IMG/VR virus record: IMGVR_UViG_3300033153_010139
Span: 1-64,000 of that record
Length of the DNA stretch: 64,000 bases
From: a virus
Direction: 5' to 3' (one strand)
The notes beneath the pieces are model-generated. The model made no database searches and was not told the DNA's origin. It saw only the letters and a program-made list of their open reading frames with translations. A program made the translations under genes and the position numbers. Shown here piece by piece: positions 15-60,964 of this stretch; position 1 is the stretch's first letter; every line of letters starts with the position of its first letter.

Positions 15-1100
15 ATGCCCACCGACTACCGCAAGTTCACCGCCCGTGACCAAGGCCGGTGGAACAAGAAGATCGCCAGGTCTGCGGTAGACCAGCTTGC
101 GCGCCCAGACGCCTGTGTCCTGTGGACGGCCGGCACGAACACGCGCGGTTACGGCGTGTTTCGGCTGCCGCCGCGCACCGTGCTCGCGCACCGCGCGGCC
201 TACGTGCAGGCACGTGGGCAGATCCCGGACGGCCGGCTGGTGCGCCACACGTGCGATACGCCAGCGTGCGTGAATCCGCGGCACCTGGTGCTGGGCACGG
301 TCGCCGAGAACTCGGCGGACATGGTCGCGCGCGGGCGGAACCTTGGGCTGCGCACTGGCGAGAAGAACGGGCGCGCCAAGCTCGACTGGCCCAAGGTGGA
401 CGAGATTCGCGAGCGCTTGGCCGCGGGTGAATCAGGCCGGTCGCTGGCTCGCGAGTTTGGCGTGACCCAGGCGACGCTTTCCGAGATCAAGCTCGGGCGT
501 ATCTGGCAGAAGCCGGGCGCGGCGATCGTGCCCAAGAAGCCGGGGAAGCCTCGCGGCATAAACCACTCGAAGCGCCGGCCCGTTGCCGATCTCTTCTGGG
601 CGAAGGTCAAGAAGGCCGGCCCAGACGACTGCTGGGAGTGGCAGGCCGGCAAGACGCCGGGCGGCTACGGCGCGTTCCGCTATCATCGCGCCGTTCGTGC
701 GGCCCATCGCGTCGCCTTCAAGCTGGAGCACGGGCGGTGGCCAGTGGATGACGCTGCACACACCTGCGCGAACCGCGCGTGCGTGAACCCCGCTCACCTC
801 GAAGACACGACGCGCACCGCCAACATGCAGAACGAGCAGACCCGCAAGCGGATCGCCTCGAAGGCCCGCGGCGGCCGGCGGAACACCAAGCTCACGGACG
901 ACCAGATCCGCTACGCGAAGGAGCGCTTCCGCGACGATCTTCTTCTATCCGCTCGCAGGCTCGCGGCTGAGATGGGGGATGTTGTTACGCCCGAGTGCCT
1001 GGCCAACATCAGGAAGGGGAAGACCGGGCGGCACGTGAAGGTCAAAGGCTTCCGGGCGCGGAAGGTGACTCCGAAGCAGATCGCGCGGATGCGGGCATGA
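15..1100 (+). CDS. HNH homing endonuclease with two HNH domains and HTH DNA-binding segments
   Basis: Two phage HNH motifs: GYG...LAHR...VRHTCDTPACVNPRHL and GYG...AAHR...AHTCANRACVNPAHL, each followed by an HTH-like segment (SGRSLAREFGVTQATLS). Confidence 0.85.
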   Translation: MPTDYRKFTARDQGRWNKKIARSAVDQLARPDACVLWTAGTNTRGYGVFRLPPRTVLAHRAAYVQARGQIPDGRLVRHTCDTPACVNPRHLVLGTVAENSADMVARGRNLGLRTGEKNGRAKLDWPKVDEIRERLAAGESGRSLAREFGVTQATLSEIKLGRIWQKPGAAIVPKKPGKPRGINHSKRRPVADLFWAKVKKAGPDDCWEWQAGKTPGGYGAFRYHRAVRAAHRVAFKLEHGRWPVDDAAHTCANRACVNPAHLEDTTRTANMQNEQTRKRIASKARGGRRNTKLTDDQIRYAKERFRDDLLLSARRLAAEMGDVVTPECLANIRKGKTGRHVKVKGFRARKVTPKQIARMRA

Positions 1101-1345: not shown

Positions 1346-1858
1346 ATGAGCAACTCAGGCGATAGTTTGGTTCGGGACATCAAGCGTGTCCTGTGTCTCT
1401 ACGGGCACAATAAGCGCGCAGAGGCCGCGCTTCGGAAGAAGCAAGCCGGGCGCATGGCGGTAAAGCTGGAGACCGTGCTCGGTCGGGTTGCTATCGATCG
1501 CGGGGTGTTCGCCGCGCTGCTGATGGCGCTCGCTCGCGGGCCGGTAACCGACGACGCGTGGCGACGCGCGACGAGCCAGCGCGGGACATCATCGCGCATC
1601 ACCAAGCGGGCCTCGTTCGACGCCTTCACCGCGATGCAGATGCCAACGTGCAACGTGAGCCCGCACAGCCAACGGATTGTCACTATTCGGGAACGGTGCG
1701 ACGCGAAGGTGATGAGGAACGTCTTGCTGTGGCTGCTGGACCACAACGCCGACCTGCTAACGACCAAGACCCGCCGCGCGGCGTTGCGGCACGTGTGCCG
1801 ATTCGGCGCGCTCGCTGGCGTGTCGGCCATCGATCAGCTCGCCGCGCTCGGCAAGTAG
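1346..1858 (+). CDS. hypothetical protein with C-terminal SAIDQLAALGK tag
   Basis: ORF directly after the promoter motif; carries the shared tag. Confidence 0.65.
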   Translation: MSNSGDSLVRDIKRVLCLYGHNKRAEAALRKKQAGRMAVKLETVLGRVAIDRGVFAALLMALARGPVTDDAWRRATSQRGTSSRITKRASFDAFTAMQMPTCNVSPHSQRIVTIRERCDAKVMRNVLLWLLDHNADLLTTKTRRAALRHVCRFGALAGVSAIDQLAALGK

Positions 1859-1943
1859 TGCTCGTTACCGTTCCATGTGAAGTTTCTCGGAAATTCTCGG
1901 GAGACGCGGGTAGAACGTTAACCAACCCGGAGGCGAGGTAGTC

Positions 1944-2432
1944 ATGAGACAGGAAGCACTGGTCGAGCTGGAGCGGATTCGGAGCGAGGACCCGGACGGC
2001 AAGCTGCACCCCGAAGCGGTCGTGGCCGGGGCCCGGCCCGCAGCCTCACCGCTCCACAGGCACTTCACTTGGGGTAACGACGAGGCAGCGCGGCGCTGGC
2101 GGCTCCACCAAGCGGGCAAGATGATTCGCATGGCGATCACGGTGCTGCCATCGGACAACACGATACCAGTGCGAATGTTCGTCTCGGTCGGCAGCGACCG
2201 AACGGCATCGAGCCCGGTCGGCAGCGGCGGCGGCTACCGCAGTGTCGTGAACGTGATGAGCAGCGAGGAGCTGCTCGCGGAGCTGCTCGACGACGCTCTC
2301 CGCGAGATCAACAATTTCCGCAGGAAGTATCGGCGGCTCACGGCGCTGGCGCCCGTGATCTCCGCAATGGACGACGCTATGGAACTCCTCGGCGATGGAG
2401 ACGACGAGGACGACGAGGACGACGAGGACTAG
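1944..2432 (+). CDS. conserved-looking phage protein upstream of the RAMP-like genes, acidic tail
   Basis: GGAGG RBS; LHPEAVV..ARP..SPLHRHFTW..DEAARRWRLHQA motif; GGGTAGAAC at 1908-1916. Confidence 0.75.
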   Translation: MRQEALVELERIRSEDPDGKLHPEAVVAGARPAASPLHRHFTWGNDEAARRWRLHQAGKMIRMAITVLPSDNTIPVRMFVSVGSDRTASSPVGSGGGYRSVVNVMSSEELLAELLDDALREINNFRRKYRRLTALAPVISAMDDAMELLGDGDDEDDEDDED

Positions 2433-2485
2433 GCTTTGCGATTCACCAGGACGGATAACCAACACCACCGGAGGCGAGTGGACAG

Positions 2486-3244
2486 ATGATCGGGACAGTG
2501 GAAAAGAAGGTCAAGAAGAAGGTCAAGAAGGCGGCCAAGAAGGCCAAGAAGAAGGCGAAGAAGAAGGCGGCCAAGAACGGGACCGGCAACGGCGCTGATC
2601 CCGGGTCCAAGGCACTGGCCATCCTCCCGCCAAACTTCCAGTGGATCGAAGTCCCGATCGTGGGCACGACGGTCTACGTGCAGCACAAGTGGAGCGAGAA
2701 GGCCAGGAAGGCCATGCGCGACGCCCAGGCGGCCGGCTCGTCGGCCAAGCGGAAGGGCGGGAAGCGCGCGCCCAAGGACTTCAACGCGCTCTACAAGGAT
2801 GCGATGCACCGCACCACCGACGGTGGCTACGGGATTCCAGCTGGTGCCTTCTTCAAGGCGCTCGTCTCGGCCTGCAGGCTGTGCGAGTTCAAGATGACGA
2901 TCGCGCGGCAGGCCCTCTACATCCAGGCCGACGCCGAGAGCGCCGATCCCGGTGACCGAGGCGGGCTCGTGCGCATCACGAAGGGCAAGCCGTCGCAGTT
3001 CGAGACGGCGGTTCGGATCCAGCAGACCACCGACATTCGCGTTCGGCCTCTGTGGGAGCCGGGCTGGAAGGCCACCGTCAGGGTGCGCTTCGACGCCGAC
3101 ATTCTCTCGATGGCGGACATCGCCAACTTGTTCATGCGGGCCGGGATGCAGGTCGGCGTCGGCGAGGGCCGCCCGGACACGCCGAGCGGCGGCATGGGCT
3201 GGGGCTTGTTCGAGGTGCTGACGCCGCAAGCGGCCAGCGCGTAA
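2486..3244 (+). CDS. RAMP/Cas7-like RNA-binding protein (paralog 1) with Lys/Ala-rich N-tail
   Basis: YGIPAGAFFKALVSA resembles the RAMP IPxSxxKG(A)LR motif; C-terminal Gly-rich loop GVGEGRP..GMGWGLFEV; GGAGG RBS; adjacent to the repeat array. Confidence 0.7.
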   Translation: MIGTVEKKVKKKVKKAAKKAKKKAKKKAAKNGTGNGADPGSKALAILPPNFQWIEVPIVGTTVYVQHKWSEKARKAMRDAQAAGSSAKRKGGKRAPKDFNALYKDAMHRTTDGGYGIPAGAFFKALVSACRLCEFKMTIARQALYIQADAESADPGDRGGLVRITKGKPSQFETAVRIQQTTDIRVRPLWEPGWKATVRVRFDADILSMADIANLFMRAGMQVGVGEGRPDTPSGGMGWGLFEVLTPQAASA

Positions 3245-3245
3245 G

Positions 3246-3860
3246 GTGAGAGCGGGTCTGAAAGCGCGCAGGGCGAAAGCCCGCAGGAAAGCCGCCCTGA
3301 AGAAAGCGTGGGCGGACAGCTCGAAGACGTGCACTTTCAAGATCAGGGGAACTGCGCGCTACGTGCAGTTCCCCTGGTGCAGCATCGCTCGGCGCTGCTC
3401 TTGCACTAGCCGGATGGTCAGAACGCACGTCGATCCCGAAAAGGGGTTCGACAGCTACGTCAGTCGGGAAGGCTGGGACGGGATTCCGTGGAGTGCGTTC
3501 CTCTACGCCCTAGTTGGGGCGGCATCGCTCGCGGGACTGTCAAAAGTCGCGGCTTATAATCGTCTGGTCGTGAACGCCGACGGGATCGACGCGTTTTACG
3601 AGAAGCCTCTGGTGAGGATCACCAAAGGCACGCCATCGGGTTTTGAGATGATGGGTCGTGTTCTCGCCGCGTGGGAGGCGGGCTGGGAGGCTACCGTCAG
3701 GATGCGCTACGACCCGGAACGCTTCACGTTGGAAGACGTTTTCAATCTGCTCGCGCGGGCGGGAATGCAGGTCGGGATCGGCGAAGGTCGTCCCGGCAGA
3801 CCGGACGGCGGCTGCGGCTACGGCACGTTCGAGGTGCTGACACAGCAGGCCGGCGCGTAG
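3246..3860 (+). CDS. RAMP/Cas7-like protein (paralog 2)
   Basis: Aligns by eye with paralog 1: LVRITKG, WEAGWEATVRMRYD, AGMQVGIGEGRPG..GCGYGTFEVLT. Confidence 0.7.
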   Translation: MRAGLKARRAKARRKAALKKAWADSSKTCTFKIRGTARYVQFPWCSIARRCSCTSRMVRTHVDPEKGFDSYVSREGWDGIPWSAFLYALVGAASLAGLSKVAAYNRLVVNADGIDAFYEKPLVRITKGTPSGFEMMGRVLAAWEAGWEATVRMRYDPERFTLEDVFNLLARAGMQVGIGEGRPGRPDGGCGYGTFEVLTQQAGA

Positions 3861-3872
3861 AGATACAAACCA

Positions 3873-3919
3873 GTAGAGGCTGCGCGGCGTGCGCTCCTTC
3901 ACGTCGCGCGGCTCTCTGC
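3873..3919 (+). other. stem-loop in the leader of the array
   Basis: GTAGAG-GCTGCGCGGCGTG pairs with CACGTCGCGCGGC-T-CTCTGC using G-U pairs; 8-nt loop. Confidence 0.6.
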
Positions 3920-3930
3920 CGGTGTGACAT

Positions 3931-5544
3931 GGCAGGCTAGGTTCGGCATGGCGCGGCTAGGTCCGGCCAGGCCCGGCGCGGTCAGGCACGGCAGGCAGGG
4001 TTCGGCGCGGCAGGGTTCGGCCCGGACGTGGCGGGGCAAGGCAGGCTGGGCAGGGCCAGGCTCGATTCGGCGTGGCTCGTTGCGGCGCGGCGGGGCAGGC
4101 ATGGCAAGGCCGGGACGGGTGCGGCGGGGCTAGGACTGGACTGGCAGGCACGGCGCGGTCGGCTCGGAGCGCTACGGTCAGGTCCGGCTCGGTCCGGCAG
4201 GGACTGGCCAGGCAGGCATGGCAGGGCAGGCGCGGTGTGGTCAGGTCCGACAGGGCTGGGCGCGGCGGGGCCAGGCAGGCTTGGTGTGGTAAGGCCCGGC
4301 TTGGCATGGTCTGTCGAGGACCGGTCAGGCGCGGCGCGGTCAGGCAAGGCAGGCAGGGTTCGGCAGGGCCGGTCGGGGTGTGGTCGGGCTCGGTACGGCA
4401 CGGCAGGCAAGGTTAGGCGCGGCTGGGCGCGGTTCGGCACGACTTGGCAGGCATGGCTCGGCAGGACTAGGCGGGGTCCGTCCTGGCCCGACGCGGTTGG
4501 GCAGGCGCGGCGTGGCTGGGCACGGTATTGCTCGGTTTGGCGGGGCTCGGCAGGGCAGGCGGGGTGTGGCCCGTCGAGGTAGCGCAGGGTCAGGCACGGC
4601 CAGGCCCGGTTCGGCAGGCGAGGACAGGTTCGGGACGGCTAGGCACGGCAGGCACGGCAGGCATGGCAGGGCCGCGCTAGGTTAGGCGTGGCGTGGCGAG
4701 ACCCGGCAGGCGTGGCTCGGCAAGGTTCGTCAGGTTTCGGCACGGCCGGGTTCGGCAGGGCAGGCAGGGTAGGGCCGGGCAGTGCGCGGCAGGGTCCGGT
4801 GCGATTCGGCTGGGCAGGCAGGGTCCGGCGCGGTTGGGCACGGTAAGGCACGGCTAGGCTCGGTCCGGTATGGCCGGGCAGGCAGGGTTAGGCATGTCGA
4901 GGCGTGGCGCGGCGCGGCAGGGTTTGGTGCGGCAGGCGAGGTTCGGTTAGGTCGGGCAGGGTTCGGCGCGGCCAGGCCGGGCCGGGCCGGGCAGGCAAGG
5001 TGAGGCACGGCGAGGCGAGGCTGGACCTGGCTGGGTCCGGCAGGCAAGGCTAGGCGCGGTTCGGTACGGCTTGGCGAGGCAGGCATGGTGAGGCCGGGCT
5101 AGGTCGGGAGCGATTTGGCAAGGTTCGGCAGGCATGGTTTGGCTCGGCCAGGTACGGCAAGGCACGGCCTTGGCACGGCCCGGCGCGGCAGGCAAGGTTT
5201 GGCAAGGCCGGGCGCGGCACGGCCTGACGGGGCTCGGCAGGCGTGGCGGGGCTCGGTTCGGCGTGGTCAGGCTTGGCGCGACGCGGCGCGGCAGGCGAGG
5301 ACAGGTTCGGGACGGTTAGGCGCGGCAGGGTCCGGCCAGGTCCGGCAGGCAAGGCTCGGTTAGGCAGGTCATGGCGCGGCAAGGACCGGCTCGGTACTGC
5401 GCGGCAGGGCAGGCAAGGTTTGGCACGGCACGGCATGGCGGGACGGGGCTTGGCTTGGCGAGGCAGGCGGGGTCCGGCATTGCCCGGCGTGGACAGGCAA
5501 GGCATGGCATGGTGAGGCGGGATTCGGCACGGCAGGCAAGGCAA
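3931..5544 (+). repeat. GGY-NN pentamer array, about 30 units delimited by 4-nt GGCA (putative guide-RNA array)
   Basis: Hand parse gives GGCA at 3931, 3990, 4040, 4094, 4143, 4211, 4225, 4274, 4348, 4402, 4446, 4500, 4554, 4613 and onward to 5462 and 5531; most are followed by 8-12 GG(C/T)NN pentamers; strong G skew; no credible ORF. Confidence 0.9.
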
Positions 5545-5557
5545 GGAGAACATCAGC

Positions 5558-5827
5558 ATGGACGATCCGGCCGACCTGCAAGGTCCGCCGCGCTACAAGC
5601 GCGGTGATCGCGTCGTGGGCTACTACGACGAACTGGGCGCTGGTGAGGTTACCGAGTTCACCGGCAGTGCGTACGGCGGTCGGTTCGGCGATTTGGCGCA
5701 CGCTTATCGCGTCTTGTGGGATCCAGTGGAGGACTGGGCCTTCGAGGGGGCGGTATTCGACGACGAGATCGAACCAGAGGGTGCCATCGACGGCCTGGCC
5801 GCGCTGGGGCGGCGAACGGCCAGCTGA
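5558..5827 (+). CDS. small SH3-like protein with C-terminal tag
   Basis: AAGGAG RBS at the end of the array; YKRGDRVV; ends GAIDGLAALGRRTAS. Confidence 0.7.
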   Translation: MDDPADLQGPPRYKRGDRVVGYYDELGAGEVTEFTGSAYGGRFGDLAHAYRVLWDPVEDWAFEGAVFDDEIEPEGAIDGLAALGRRTAS

Positions 5828-5854
5828 CGCCAAGCCCGGGTAGAACATTGGTAC
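5823..5854 (+). promoter_or_regulatory. GCTGACGCC-N8-(GGG)TAGAAC promoter motif
   Basis: GCTGACGCCAAGCCCGGGTAGAAC, 8 nt before ATG 5855. Confidence 0.65.
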
Positions 5855-6475
5855 ATGAGTCGGACCGCAAAGAACCTGTCCTCGGCGCAGGTCGAACGCC
5901 TGTTTCGAGCGGGCGAGAGCACTGTCGAGGAGGAGCGAATCGCCAGGGCGAGACTGCAGCCGTCCAGACGCGGCAGTATGCCCACCGCCGCTCGCGACCT
6001 CGCGCTGGCCCGGCTCGCCACCGCCGGATTTCGGCCCGCCGAGATGGCTCACATGGTGGTCGGGGACCTTGGCGACGCGTCCGTGCGCGTCGTGACGCGA
6101 ACACCGGGGCATGAGGTTGAGGGGCGCGCGGAGTTGAACCAAACGACCGCCGCATGGATCGGCAGGGCCATCCGCGAGACAGGTGTAGCGGGTGACCCAG
6201 AGGCGCCCTTGTTTCCGAGCAGGCACAGCCGCAAGCCGATGAGTACTCGCGCGATTTGGGACTCGATCAAGAAGCTCCTCAAGCGTGCTCGCCTGCGGAA
6301 CCACAGCGCGGAGGATTTGCGGCGGTTCTATCTGAGGCGTGTTGTTGAGGATTTGCGCCAGGAGCCGGGACCGTTCGACCTGGTAAGGTTCGCTGTTCTT
6401 GGCCGCTTCCAGTCGCTCACGCACGCGTTGCGCCACGTCGAGCCGGTGCTGCGCGCTGACGCCAAGCCGGGCTAG
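5855..6475 (+). CDS. tyrosine recombinase-fold protein with degenerate active site
   Basis: RDLALARLATAGFRPAEM, PLFPSR, HSAEDLRR, VLGRFQSLTHALRH; catalytic His, His/Trp and Tyr positions substituted. Confidence 0.7.
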   Translation: MSRTAKNLSSAQVERLFRAGESTVEEERIARARLQPSRRGSMPTAARDLALARLATAGFRPAEMAHMVVGDLGDASVRVVTRTPGHEVEGRAELNQTTAAWIGRAIRETGVAGDPEAPLFPSRHSRKPMSTRAIWDSIKKLLKRARLRNHSAEDLRRFYLRRVVEDLRQEPGPFDLVRFAVLGRFQSLTHALRHVEPVLRADAKPG

Positions 6476-8248: not shown

Positions 8249-8284
8249 GTTCTACCCGGCTCTGTCGCATCGGCAGGGTAGAAC
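8249..8284. promoter_or_regulatory. divergent back-to-back GGGTAGAAC promoters
   Basis: GTTCTACCC (8249-8257) and GGGTAGAAC (8276-8284) lie between divergent genes. Confidence 0.65.
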
Positions 8285-9233: not shown

Positions 9234-9456
9234 CCAGGGCCGCCAGCTCGTCGATGACTGTCCACAGCCGGAGCTTGTCGGCCGTTGGCGATGCGGCGTA
9301 CTCGTGGCCATCGCCCCACCTGATCCACGGCCAGGCGTTAGACATGAGATGAAGCACCGTGCCCTTGCGCCTCCGCTCGCGGTCCTCCATCGGTATGAGC
9401 GGGCCGAAGCACGGCCGGATGTCGTAGACGCGGTCTCCGGGCGAGAACTGGATCAC
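9226..9456 (-). CDS. small SH3-like protein with tag
   Basis: GTG overlaps the upstream stop; FSPGDRVYD; ends TVIDELAALVK. Confidence 0.6.
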   Translation of the reverse strand: MIQFSPGDRVYDIRPCFGPLIPMEDRERRRKGTVLHLMSNAWPWIRWGDGHEYAASPTADKLRLWTVIDELAALVK

Positions 9457-9904: not shown

Positions 9905-9940
9905 GTTCTACCCCGCGCTGACGCCTAACCAGGGTAGAAC
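9905..9940. promoter_or_regulatory. divergent GGGTAGAAC promoters with central GCTGACGCC
   Basis: GTTCTACCC 9905-9913, GCTGACGCC 9917-9925, GGGTAGAAC 9932-9940. Confidence 0.7.
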
Positions 9941-34582: not shown

Positions 34583-35509
34583 GTGGGCAGACCATCGGCA
34601 ATCGGCTACGGTTGGCAGCCTTACGGCCATCCGCAGAGCAGCAGCGCGCTGTGGCGCGCCGGTAATGCGCCGTTCCCGGTCAATGCCGGCTACGGCCGCG
34701 GCGACTGGGCCGAGTACGTCACCTGGCGAATCCTGCCGGAGCACACACGCAACGAGGATGGCGAAGGGAGCCTGGTCCCAGAGCCGCTGCGCGGCATGAT
34801 CGACTGCCTCAAGCCGCTCATGAACGAGTTGGTCGCCAAGTGGACGCTTTTCCCGACGCTCTGGGACGCGAACCTGTGCCCGATCGCGCAGCTCCCGAAG
34901 CTGGCCTACAACGTGGGGATCGCGCTCGACCCGACGAAGTCCGAAGCGCTGCAGCGCTCTGAGGTGCTGAACGCCTCCCAGCTGTTCCTGCACAAAGGCA
35001 CCGATCTCGGCTATACCATCGTCGCCGCGTTCGAGGGTCTGCTGGTCACGATCACGGCACTCTGGGCGGACGGGCAAGAGCCATCGTCAGCGCTGACCGA
35101 CGTCGATCCGACGACGTTCGTTGCGCAGTACGACGAAGTGGCGGCAGACGACATCCCGACCGACGAGGTCTTCGACGACCGCTACGCGCTGTGGCCGAAG
35201 AGTCTCTACGTGACCGGCCCGGTACGGACCATGAAGCTGCGGCTCGTGTTCTACCCGACGGCGGATCAGACACAGGACTTTGACCCGGACGTCGCGGACC
35301 GAATCGTCGCCAGGCTCCTGCGGTTCAAGCCCATCTATGTGGAGATCGATCGGATCACCTTCGATGGGCTGCGCGGGTCTAGCCAGACGTGGGTAGAAGA
35401 CATCAACGCCGGCGAATTGGCGGTAGGCATGTGGACTGCGCCAGTTACGGGCGCCAGCTATGCGGCCAGCGCGACGTGGACGGCTCCGGTCGTGGCGAGC
35501 ACGGTGTAG
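34583..35509 (+). CDS. baseplate wedge protein (P2 gpI-like)
   Basis: CPIAQLPKLAYNVGI; HKGT; RFKPIYV. Confidence 0.7.
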   Translation: MGRPSAIGYGWQPYGHPQSSSALWRAGNAPFPVNAGYGRGDWAEYVTWRILPEHTRNEDGEGSLVPEPLRGMIDCLKPLMNELVAKWTLFPTLWDANLCPIAQLPKLAYNVGIALDPTKSEALQRSEVLNASQLFLHKGTDLGYTIVAAFEGLLVTITALWADGQEPSSALTDVDPTTFVAQYDEVAADDIPTDEVFDDRYALWPKSLYVTGPVRTMKLRLVFYPTADQTQDFDPDVADRIVARLLRFKPIYVEIDRITFDGLRGSSQTWVEDINAGELAVGMWTAPVTGASYAASATWTAPVVASTV

Positions 35510-58495: not shown

Positions 58496-60964
58496 ATGGC
58501 AATCCGAGCAAAGCAAATGCTGTCGAGCACTTTCGACAGCACCCAGGTCACCCGGCTGTTCGCGGCACAAGCAATCGCCGGCTCCAAAATCGCCAATGGC
58601 GACATCACCGGAACGCAGTTAGCGACGTCGGTGGCCGGCTCCGGCCTGACCGGCGGCGGCGGTTCGGCGCTGGCTGTCGAGCCCAACGTTACCGACAACG
58701 GCCAGGTTCCCGGGCTGGAGGCCGCGGCCAACGGCGTACGGATCGCGGCTGCGGCAGCTGGCAATGGCCTCGCGGGCGGCGGTGGCACGGCGCTGTCCGT
58801 GGATGTGGACTCGGAGACGGGTTCCAACATCCAGCCGGCCAATCTCACCGCCAACGGCGTGGGCGTGGACATCAACGCCATCGCCGGCACCGGTGTCGAA
58901 GCCGACGGTTCCGCCAACCTGCGCCTCGCAACCCAAGGCAACGGTATCGCCGGCGGCAACGGTTCGACCCTGAGCGTGGACCCGGACTCCGAGAGCGGCG
59001 GCAACACCGAGCCAGTGTCCGTGGGCGCCAACGGCGTCGGGCTCAACGTGTCCGGCATTGCCGGCACCGGCATCGAGGCCGATGGGTCGGCGAACCTGCG
59101 CCTCGCCGCACAGGGCAACGGCATTACCGGTGGCGCCGGTTCGACCTTGTCGGTCGATCCTGACACCGGCATTGCTGTTGGCGCGAGCGGCGTTGCCGTC
59201 GATGTCGGATCGACGGTGGACTTCTCCGGCGACACTCCAGTCTGGACATTCGGCAACGAGACCACGGCCGAGGGGCTATTCGTCACAGGTACGCCGCAAG
59301 ACGCCAACCACGTGCCCAACAAGAGCTACGTGGACAACGCAATCACTGGACTCACCTGGCTGCCGCCGGTGCATGTCAAGGAGATGATCGGCTCGGACGC
59401 TGCGCTGGACATCGAGGGGTTCTCCCCAGCTGCCGGCGACGCCTACGTGATCGACACGGCCAACGGCGCCGGCGTGCTCGCCGGTGCGACAGTGGGCGAC
59501 ATCTGGGAGTACAGCGGATCCGCGTGGGCGCTGATCATCGCCGGCGACGGCGGCTATGTAGCCAACGGCTACCGAGCACTCGCCTCGATCCAGACGGCGC
59601 TCAACGGTTCCATCGGGTTGGTGAACGACACCGACGACGGCAAGGTGTTGGAGTGGGATGGCACGAGCCTGACCCCGGCCAAGACCTCGCCGTCCAGTGG
59701 CGACGCGGCCCTGATCACAGATCAGGACGCGGACGGCGACTCGATCTACGCCAACAGCGCCTTCACGTTCGAGGGCGCGGTCCCGACCGGAACGTGGATC
59801 CAGTTCTCTGGCGCGGGGTCGATCAACGCTGGCGCTGGCCTCAGCAAGGACGGCAACACGATCAACGTTGGCGACGCCAACAAGGGCGTCCAGGCTAACG
59901 CGGACGACCTGGAAATCGCCGCCAGCGAGATCGTCAGCAACGGTCTTGGCGTAGGCGCCAGCTCACACCTGCTGGCCGTCAAGCCGAACACCGCCGACAA
60001 CGGTGGTGTTCCTGGCGTGGAGGTCGCGGCCAACGGGCTGAGGCTCGCGGCTGCGGCAGCTGGCGATGGCCTGGCCGGAGGCGCGGGCGACGCGCTCTCG
60101 GTGGATTCCGACACGGAGACCGGCGGAAACATCCAGGGCGTCAACGTCACAGCGAACGGCGCTGGGCTCGATGTCTCGGCCGTTGCCGGTACTGGCGTTG
60201 AGGCGGACGGTTCCGCGAACCTGCGCCTCGCGACGCAGGGCAACGGCATCGCCGGCGGCAACGGTTCGACGTTGAGCGTCGATTCCGACACGGAAACTGG
60301 CGGGAATGTCCAGGGCGCCAACGTCACGGCCAACGGCGTAGGTGTAGACATCAACGCAATCGCCGGCACCGGTCTCGAAGCCGACGGCAGCGCGAACCTT
60401 CGTCTGGCGACGCAGGGCAATGGCATCTCCGGCGGCAACGGTTCGACGTTGAGCGTGGATCCCGACACCGGCATTGCCGTCGGCGCCAGCGGCGTCGCTA
60501 TCGATGTCGGCTCGACGGTGGACTTCTCCGGCGATACGCCGGTTTGGACCTTCGGCAACGAGACCACTGCTGAGGGGCTATTCGTCACCGGCACGCCGCA
60601 AGACGCCAACCACGTGCCCAACAAGAGCTACGTGGATACCGCTGTCGGGAACGTCAACACGGCGGCCCTGACCGCATCCGACAAGGCCAGGATCCCGTCG
60701 TCCGCGACGTCCGGGAACTACTCAACGACTGGCCTCACGATTTCGGCCACGCCGCTCGGCTGGGTCGGGATCTACGTCAACGGTATCCTCTACGAGCTGG
60801 GCGCCGACCGCACGAAGGCGTGCTACTTCAGCTCGGACGGCGGCACGACCGCCAAGGCGATTGCGGCCATCGCCAGTGGCGACACGCTCTACTGGAACGG
60901 TTCGATCATTGGCTGGGAACTCGACGACTCCACCGACGTGGTGGACATGGTTTACGAGACCTAG
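58496..60964 (+). CDS. repeat-rich fibre protein
   Basis: Multiple GTGxEADGSANLRLATQGNGIAGG repeats; duplicated PNKSYVD segment. Confidence 0.7.
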   Translation: MAIRAKQMLSSTFDSTQVTRLFAAQAIAGSKIANGDITGTQLATSVAGSGLTGGGGSALAVEPNVTDNGQVPGLEAAANGVRIAAAAAGNGLAGGGGTALSVDVDSETGSNIQPANLTANGVGVDINAIAGTGVEADGSANLRLATQGNGIAGGNGSTLSVDPDSESGGNTEPVSVGANGVGLNVSGIAGTGIEADGSANLRLAAQGNGITGGAGSTLSVDPDTGIAVGASGVAVDVGSTVDFSGDTPVWTFGNETTAEGLFVTGTPQDANHVPNKSYVDNAITGLTWLPPVHVKEMIGSDAALDIEGFSPAAGDAYVIDTANGAGVLAGATVGDIWEYSGSAWALIIAGDGGYVANGYRALASIQTALNGSIGLVNDTDDGKVLEWDGTSLTPAKTSPSSGDAALITDQDADGDSIYANSAFTFEGAVPTGTWIQFSGAGSINAGAGLSKDGNTINVGDANKGVQANADDLEIAASEIVSNGLGVGASSHLLAVKPNTADNGGVPGVEVAANGLRLAAAAAGDGLAGGAGDALSVDSDTETGGNIQGVNVTANGAGLDVSAVAGTGVEADGSANLRLATQGNGIAGGNGSTLSVDSDTETGGNVQGANVTANGVGVDINAIAGTGLEADGSANLRLATQGNGISGGNGSTLSVDPDTGIAVGASGVAIDVGSTVDFSGDTPVWTFGNETTAEGLFVTGTPQDANHVPNKSYVDTAVGNVNTAALTASDKARIPSSATSGNYSTTGLTISATPLGWVGIYVNGILYELGADRTKACYFSSDGGTTAKAIAAIASGDTLYWNGSIIGWELDDSTDVVDMVYET

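Follow-up and report, generated by a model that had tools for sequence, protein, structure and literature searches.

A very probable VIPR locus with a staggered guide array and two tandem RAMP genes in an uncultured phage

The DNA analysed here, a window of 64,000 nucleotides, is the first 64 kb of the linear, 119,266-nt IMG/VR virus record IMGVR_UViG_3300033153_010139, whose completeness is estimated at 43%. Positions 1908-5555 of this window contain a gene of 162 amino acids (vap), two paralogous RAMP-type genes (viprA and viprB) and a 1.6 kb array of GGYNN pentamers (Y being C or T), all of them listed in Table 1. The locus is very probably a VIPR (Viral Interference Programmable Repeat) system of the vap-bearing kind with a staggered guide array. 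The evidence that demonstrates this membership comprises the protein fold, the homology to the Vipr protein of Escherichia phage SUSP1, the pentamer code, the linkage of gene, vap and array, and a conserved junction between guides.

The VIPR preprints of 2026 describe a minimal RAMP (Vipr), usually with one accessory gene (vap), together with vrRNAs of 9-16 YNNGG repeats, a combination that silences the transcription of competing mobile elements; seven types (I-VII) and several array architectures have been named (10.64898/2026.04.26.720920). The original prediction, made from the sequence alone, had presented the locus as a candidate non-CRISPR RNA-guided system and had noted its likeness to the VIPR systems of recent reports. 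The reports do exist as bioRxiv preprints and the RNA-guided reading is supported, but systems of this kind were first published in April 2026, so the locus is not a new candidate class. Two points go beyond that prediction: sequence comparisons indicate that the 162-amino acid (aa) gene is a third conserved component, and that the second paralogue, which lacks key RNA-gripping residues, is not a normal part of VIPR systems.

The two paralogues, ViprA and ViprB, share 76 of 194 aligned residues (39% identity, E 4e-37), and their translations display the expected RAMP-type and Gly-rich motifs, GIPAGAFFKAL and GVGEGRP in ViprA, GIPWSAFLYAL and GIGEGRP in ViprB. Both match phrog_4652, and Pfam and PADLOC searches with vap, ViprA and ViprB gave no match. 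ViprA belongs to a family of 2,248 clusters at 50% identity (E<=0.001). Its fold was predicted from a 43-row alignment with a mean predicted local distance difference test (pLDDT) score of 83.5, and a Foldseek search with this model of 2486-3244 returned 35 matches at E<=0.001, all 35 to backbone subunits of type III or type VII CRISPR effectors. Because every match of this confident model is a CRISPR effector backbone subunit, ViprA is, on the predicted structure, a RAMP, as had been proposed.

The homology to a solved Vipr is visible at the level of the family. A profile of 75 diverse members, run against 177,635 PDB sequences, found SUSP1 Vipr (36pp_D, E 8.8e-07, 31.8 bits) as its only significant match, the next one being CopZ at E 0.086; a narrower family profile reached SUSP1 Vipr at E 0.12, and a single-sequence search with ViprA gave no SUSP1 match. 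In the residue mapping, taken from HMMER alignments and not from superposition, R138 (thumb), R179 and D177 (G-loop) and H17 (strand 1) of SUSP1 align with R187, R229, E227 and H67 of ViprA. These positions are strongly conserved in the family, with R187, R229 and E227 present in 42/42 members and N or H at position 67 in 38/42. Four of the five residues with which SUSP1 Vipr grips GGY (H17, R138, D177, W178 and R179) are kept or conservatively replaced in ViprA.

The association between gene and array was surveyed in 136 related loci, namely the best 80 of 497 confirmed viral loci and 56 loci from cellular genomes and metagenome-assembled genomes (MAGs), drawn from many phyla; the nearest cellular copies of ViprA are found in Planctomycetota MAGs, at 55-56% identity. 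A pentamer array on the same strand lies within 2 kb of vipr in 123 of the 136 loci. Array sequence makes up 11.6% of the near flanks and 0.27% of the + strand farther out, a 43-fold difference, and 0.07% of the - strand. Given this linkage, the pentamer units are the guide type proper to the ViprA family, which bears out their original reading as guides. An adjacent vrRNA is defined in VIPR systems by at least four tandem YNNGG units on the strand of the gene, with GGY fixed and NN variable; here 325 pentamers were counted, on the + strand only. A homologue of the 162-aa gene accompanies vipr in 122/136 loci, downstream of it in 117 and upstream, as here, in 5, and for this reason the gene is identified as the vap of the present clade. 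Structure work weakly suggests a winged-helix-like fold for its product, for which no similarity to solved proteins was detectable.

The periodicity of the array is evident from the base autocorrelation of 3861-5560, with peaks at lag 5 (0.541) and lag 54 (0.533). When the window is divided into 128 bins of 500 nt, just three of them (starts 4001, 4501 and 5001) have a GG..GG lag-5 score above 0.06, and no second pentamer array was found in the whole record when both strands were scanned. A dynamic-programming parse resolves 33 four-nt phase breaks (32 GGCA and one GGTC) and three six-nt breaks; the 32 GGCA bound 31 units, in agreement with the roughly thirty originally estimated. The runs between breaks are mostly of 9-12 pentamers and most commonly of 10 (11/36 runs), so that GGCA plus 10 pentamers, 54 nt in all, is indeed the commonest spacing. 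Among the 325 pentamers, 312 (96%) have G at position 1, 293 (90%) have G at position 2 and 303 (93%) have C or T at position 3, with positions 4 and 5 variable. When read through the next GGCAG, 28/31 units have a length divisible by 5; 28/31 end with the pentamer GGCAG and 28/31 begin with GGC[AG]N. Since each of these features holds in 28 of the 31 units, the 4-nt GGCA is better seen as a GGCAG pentamer whose last G doubles as the first G of the next unit. Among the 137 loci parsed this array is the longest, with 23 well-flanked junctions against at most 16 in the others. The seven opening pentamers of the guides at 4617-4651 and 5294-5348 are identical at 13 of 14 NN positions, which is a trace of unit duplication inside the array or reflects redundancy between guides.

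The same punctuation was then seen throughout the family. Across the 136 related loci, 612 junctions with at least 5 in-phase pentamers on each side were counted, and 574 of them are 4-nt slips. NGCA occurs at 505 of these 574 slips (GGCA at 378, CGCA at 104, AGCA at 12 and TGCA at 11), and the pentamer that follows opens with GGC in 475; all 23 well-flanked junctions of the present array are GGCA. The one-base register slip is a family-wide, conserved guide punctuation, and the role of GGCA as a unit boundary extends well beyond this phage. The 136 loci each carry a single vipr, and as these single-vipr relatives show the same slip, no second protein is needed for it. The legend of fig. S18 in one preprint describes an architecture of 'staggered arrays', with vrRNAs from '1 nt overlapping positions' (bioRxiv 10.64898/2026.04.26.720920); compared with the text of this legend, the GGCA junctions with their 1-nt overlap fit the published type.

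For SUSP1 Vipr, cryo-electron microscopy places one protomer on each pentamer, with two neighbouring protomers locking GGY and leaving NN exposed (10.64898/2026.04.26.720927), which is the arrangement that the original prediction had imagined for one protomer per GGY presenting the variable NN. The SUSP1 filament binds double-stranded DNA in vitro and in vivo, skipping every third base, and represses transcription (10.64898/2026.04.26.720920). In the present system, the promoter-like element at 1908 would give rise to a single + strand transcript carrying vap, viprA, viprB and the array, and ViprA would polymerise on this transcript. At each GGCAG/GC junction the register would slip by one base, and a filament with a strict 5-nt register would stop there, because such a register cannot cross a 4-nt step. 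This slip, rather than a separate tail or a ribozyme, may mark the end of one guide and the start of the next. The output could be about 31 guides, mostly of 9-13 pentamers, each reading a target of roughly 27-40 bp; most likely, these targets would lie in coding regions of rival mobile elements or of the host, where codon positions 1-2 would be read.

Potential targets were sought with the published guide conversion, in which GGY becomes one wildcard (10.64898/2026.04.26.720920), and with 25 regular guides of at least 8 pentamers compared with shuffled guides at skips 0, 1, 2 and 3. The scan covered the record itself and the 80 viral loci with arrays masked, the 56 genome loci lying outside it. 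Matches of the guides to the rest of their own record had a mean of 0.718, against 0.717 for shuffled guides, and matches to the 80 viral loci a mean of 0.748, against 0.754. Because the guides match these 80 loci no better than chance, relatives of the present phage do not stand out as targets. None of the guides recurs among the 136 related loci. The absence of self-matches agrees with what is reported for published VIPR systems (10.64898/2026.04.26.720920). One candidate was considered separately: the guide 4229-4278 matches positions 9349-9368 (-) of the related locus L076 at 19/20 bases with skip 0, about 2.7 kb from the vipr of that locus. None of 1000 shuffled guides came as near, but as a single hit in about 100 unit-by-skip tests, and one that departs from the published 1-nt skip rule, it was set aside.

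The composition of the guides offers some information about the reading frame. The 195 internal NN dinucleotides were compared with codon-position dinucleotide frequencies from 73 genes of the present phage, and 'antisense to codon positions 1-2' was the best NN model, with a log-likelihood (lnL) of -533.6 against -563 to -623 for the other five models. With the best strand chosen for each unit, the model of positions 1-2 fails to beat those of positions 2-3 and 3-1 in only 1.1% and 0.05% of unit bootstraps, respectively. The NN composition thus modestly favours the wobble-skip frame.

Several observations weigh against the interpretation as a staggered-array VIPR with register-slip boundaries. 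W178 of SUSP1, which stacks on G2, is replaced by Gly (G228) in 42/42 family members, so that the recognition of GG must differ in detail from that in SUSP1. Staggered arrays, unlike two other architectures, are given without confirmation by small-RNA sequencing in the text of the preprint (10.64898/2026.04.26.720920). No target rises above the shuffled guides in the record itself or in the 80 viral loci, and a uniform NN model (lnL -540.7) stands about 7 log units below the best codon model. Finally, the register slip as the mechanism that sets guide boundaries is our own inference, the available text of the VIPR preprints giving no mechanism of guide processing. An entirely different view would hold that the pentamer tract lies beside RAMP genes by chance and is either coding DNA of low complexity or a DNA repeat of structural nature, such as one that forms G-quadruplexes. 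Gene callers do place open reading frames (ORFs) on tracts of this kind, the present one has several open frames, an array of Mycobacterium phage Donkeykong lies under an annotated coding sequence (CDS), and the present tract is G-rich, with a GC skew of 0.26. Yet no reading frame can be maintained through a 5-nt period that is interrupted every ~50 nt by a 4-nt step, and the longest ORF within the array has codon-position GC values of 0.71/0.77/0.75, without the contrast in GC content at the third codon position (GC3) of its neighbours (0.76-0.91). Together with the strand-specific linkage to vipr in 123/136 loci across many phyla, and with a variable NN against a fixed GGY, as a guide code predicts, these features make a chance tract hardly credible. 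A search of the array against Rfam found no ribozyme and no family above threshold; the two rows returned lay far below it and are put down to chance. It is also highly improbable that ViprA and ViprB act on RNA by binding or cleavage, in the manner of type III Csm3/Cmr4, rather than on double-stranded DNA; the closest solved folds (Csm3, Cmr4 and type VII Cas7) are all RNA-targeting backbones, but ViprA is homologous in sequence to SUSP1 Vipr, a binder of double-stranded DNA by the 1-nt skip rule, a GGY/NN guide pairs two bases in every five and is unfit for contiguous pairing with RNA, and no Cas10, Csm or Cmr partner was found. As to what the guides are aimed at, host genes of anti-phage defence or DNA modification, in place of rival phages or satellites, are a possible but somewhat unlikely class of targets. 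The lack of above-chance matches in the phage itself and in the 80 viral VIPR loci is in keeping with such host targets, and against them stand the VIPR preprints, which in the text available place targets mainly in satellites and prophages (10.64898/2026.04.26.720920; 10.64898/2026.04.26.720927; 10.64898/2026.10.15.759431).

The second paralogue raises a question of its own, as a second vipr copy occurs in 0/136 related loci, a count that covers these loci and not the closest relatives of ViprA, P0002 and P0003. Among 5.8 billion proteins ViprB has no orthologue, its best non-self matches, among 634 hits, being ordinary family members at no more than 44% identity. Its terminal branch measures 4.26 against a median of 0.57 (about 7x), and a tree joining ViprA and ViprB gains 21.7 lnL units over the free quick search and is not rejected (p value of the approximately unbiased test, p-AU, 0.84), so a local tandem duplication followed by fast change would be the simplest history for it. 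A 9-residue gap removes the tip of the thumb with D183, R185 and R187 (ViprA numbering), which are present in 42/42, 40/42 and 42/42 relatives, respectively. In strand 1, F42 replaces the His or Asn of the family (Phe is found there in 0/42 relatives). K68 has become Pro, W239 has become Tyr and part of the basic linker is lost. The G-loop retains E180, G181 and R182 and, with its flanking helix, is nearly unchanged (RAGMQVGIGEGRP vs RAGMQVGVGEGRP); outside it, the GGY-gripping residues of SUSP1 Vipr are not conserved in ViprB.

The choice between a functional, specialised ViprB and a decaying one is nearly even. That it is a decaying duplicate without a role of its own, the system running on ViprA alone as in its relatives, we rate at a little below an even chance. 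This would agree with the single copy in relatives that have the same staggered arrays, with the missing orthologues and the long branch, and with a GC3 of 0.76 in viprB against 0.91 in viprA. The lost R187 is moreover the equivalent of SUSP1 R138, whose alanine substitution abolished silencing, and the source gene call gives ViprB only 148 aa (P0271), the start used here being inferred. Decay sits less well with a frame that is open over 204 codons and whose homology to ViprA continues in frame, without frameshift, from about residue 27 up to the C-terminus despite 61% divergence, or with a GTG start one base past the viprA stop, which suits translational coupling. Furthermore, since the losses are confined mostly to the thumb and strand 1 and the G-loop is spared, the change looks like selective remodelling and not like uniform decay. 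An unlikely alternative is that ViprB is a working, specialised subunit which, without the grip of thumb and strand 1, would cap or terminate ViprA filaments or read the out-of-register GGCAG/GC junction; a bolder variant would make it a dominant-negative cap against the VIPR filaments of rival phages. A complex prediction of ViprA (residues 45-252) with ViprB, run without controls, gave scores of 0.30 and 0.21 against a mark of 0.32, which favour neither reading.

Two diverged, adjoining RAMP paralogues beside a guide array recall, by analogy, the division of labour between Cas5 and Cas7 in Class 1 complexes, where a repeating backbone is combined with a paralogue modified in its RNA contacts. 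The likeness has its limits, as the presence of ViprB in a complex is only hypothetical and ViprB has no homology-based assignment to Cas5. In the published survey, 670 Vipr proteins are counted in 667 systems, and its Discussion invokes RAMP duplication and diversification as a later step towards Class 1 CRISPR (10.64898/2026.04.26.720920). The word 'paralog' is absent from the main text of the three VIPR preprints, and 'two Vipr' from that of 10.64898/2026.04.26.720920, supplements lying outside this search.

With the published staggered-array VIPR systems the locus shares a small RAMP gene, vap, GGY/NN guides of 9-16 repeats, a viral carrier, the absence of cas genes, and guides without a tail of their own that are joined end to end by a 1-nt overlap (10.64898/2026.04.26.720920). 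It differs from them in a thumb-less second Vipr paralogue between vipr and array, in a vap that lies upstream instead of downstream, and in the length of its array. The type II VIPR of Escherichia phage SUSP1 (PDB 36pp) is alike in its homologous protein, its GGY/NN code, the thumb Arg, the G-loop Arg with an acidic residue and the strand-1 His, whereas its similarity to ViprA is too low for a single-sequence search and it has W178 where Gly is found here. SUSP1 also carries four separate guides of ~100 nt with a structured 3' tail (a pseudoknot), in contrast to the present array, in which there is neither tail nor spacer but only the register slip (10.64898/2026.04.26.720927). The Class 1 CRISPR Cas7 backbones (Csm3, Cmr4 and type VII Cas7) work in a 6-nt register, as against 5 nt here, where two of every five guide bases pair. 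No repeat-spacer array (no repeats of 25-40 nt) and no Cas1, Cas2, Cas5, Cas6 or Cas10 were found at the locus.

Related loci are also present in named phages. ViprA matches 27 mycobacteriophage records, and in Mycobacterium phage Donkeykong (NC_051648.1; L140) a GG-pentamer array at 2431-2845 lies directly upstream of the Vipr homologue gp49, which is followed by the vap homologue gp50; the 'hypothetical protein' CDS gp48 (locus 2456-2842) is probably a mis-called vrRNA array. Something similar is seen in the family protein P0051, whose called N-terminus (VRLGLARQGAARLGPARQG...) is a translated pentamer array, the gene caller having run into the vrRNA array. In cyanophage Cy-LDV1 (BK059895.1; L139), which has a cultured host, positions 2980-4590 hold the vipr g34 (47% identical to ViprA), an array, the vap g33 and a second array, with the same GGCAGGC junctions, and this locus is placed between a cI-type repressor and an excisionase.

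Table 1. Features at and around the VIPR locus (positions in the 64,000-nt window)
Feature	Position	Strand	Description
HNH endonuclease gene	15-1100		361 aa; two HNH_3 domains flanking a helix-turn-helix (HTH); Pfam E 4.5e-20; phrog_1872 E 1e-58
ORF of no assigned family	1346-1858		between HNH gene and vap
Promoter-like core GGGTAGAAC	1908-1916	+	upstream of vap
vap	1944-2432	+	162 aa; putative winged-helix-like N-terminal part, helical hairpin, acidic DEDDEDDED tail
viprA	2486-3244	+	252 aa; Lys-rich N-terminal helix, RNA recognition motif (RRM) core, thumb hairpin, G-loop GVGEGRP
viprB	3246-3860	+	204 aa; GTG start one base past viprA stop; truncated thumb, G-loop kept
Leader hairpin	3866-3926	+	between viprB and first guide, within 70-nt leader
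Staggered vrRNA array	3931-5555	+	1.6 kb of GGYNN pentamers; 31 units bounded by 32 GGCA tetramers
89-aa ORF	5558-5827	+	directly 3' of array, same promoter interval
Integrase-like fragment	5855-6475		206 aa; partial Phage_integrase match, E 1.6e-07, profile positions 18-135 of 172
All copies of GGGTAGAAC	1331-1339, 1908-1916, 5838-5846, 8249-8257(-), 8276-8284, 9905-9913(-), 9932-9940, 35248-35256(-)		(-) marks copies on the - strand

The locus is preceded by what is probably a phage-specific promoter element. The 9-nt core GGGTAGAAC has eight exact copies in the window against 0.09 expected (0/100 shuffles reach 8), seven of them between 1.3 and 10 kb and adjoining gene starts, with two divergent pairs and with copies just upstream of the starts at 1346, 1944 and 5855. 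The enrichment is that of the core alone, as the full 23-nt promoter pattern, allowing 2 mismatches, was found 8 times against 3.59 expected and 3/100 shuffles reached 8. Given a + strand copy at 1908, the next one at 5838 and none between, vap, viprA, viprB and the array share one interval. The array lies 3' of viprB but not directly after the genes, as had been described, since the leader with its strong hairpin intervenes. This hairpin has an RNA minimum free energy (MFE) of -40.1 kcal/mol (z -4.46), and 0/200 shuffles fold as well. It was considered as a family feature and rejected, with z<-2 upstream of only 10/130 arrays in the relatives and z<-3 upstream of 1/130; the hairpin is real but lineage-specific.

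The window has a GC content of 65% and 59 of its 62 predicted genes on the + strand, and it encodes tail sheath (E 1.5e-41 and 1.3e-101), tape measure and baseplate wedge proteins. Judged from these genes, the carrier appears to be a large, contractile-tailed, uncultured phage, with the VIPR locus within its early region. The original prediction had seen no Cas1, Cas2, Cas3 or nuclease adjacent to the locus; no cas match was indeed found, but an HNH gene lies nearby, at 15-1100. Its product looks like a homing-type endonuclease, and since homologues occur in 0/136 related loci and the gene lies upstream of the promoter-like element at 1908, it is outside the VIPR system. Homologues of orf170, of the integrase-like gene and of orf342 are likewise found in 0/136 related loci; the ORF at 5855-6475 is short for a tyrosine recombinase. 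On the other side of the array, the 89-aa ORF, with a GC3 of 0.76 against 0.49 at the second codon position (GC2), has no Pfam or PHROG match and no homologue in the 136 related loci, and it is probably not part of the system. Far from the locus, 60104-60468 is a tandem repeat with a 177-nt period (2.1 copies, 79% matches) within the large late gene 58496-60964.

The locus provides a clean and long example of the staggered array type, together with a one-base NGCA/GGC slip that is found family-wide, and its vap-first gene order within one promoter interval makes it a defined fragment of 3.7 kb. What sets it apart is the thumb-less Vipr in tandem, a staggered array of 31 units, the gene order that begins with vap, and the junction statistics across the family. 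Should ViprB prove to be a specialised subunit, the locus would be a natural two-RAMP VIPR, and a functional ViprB would bear on the route that may have led from single-RAMP systems to multi-RAMP complexes.

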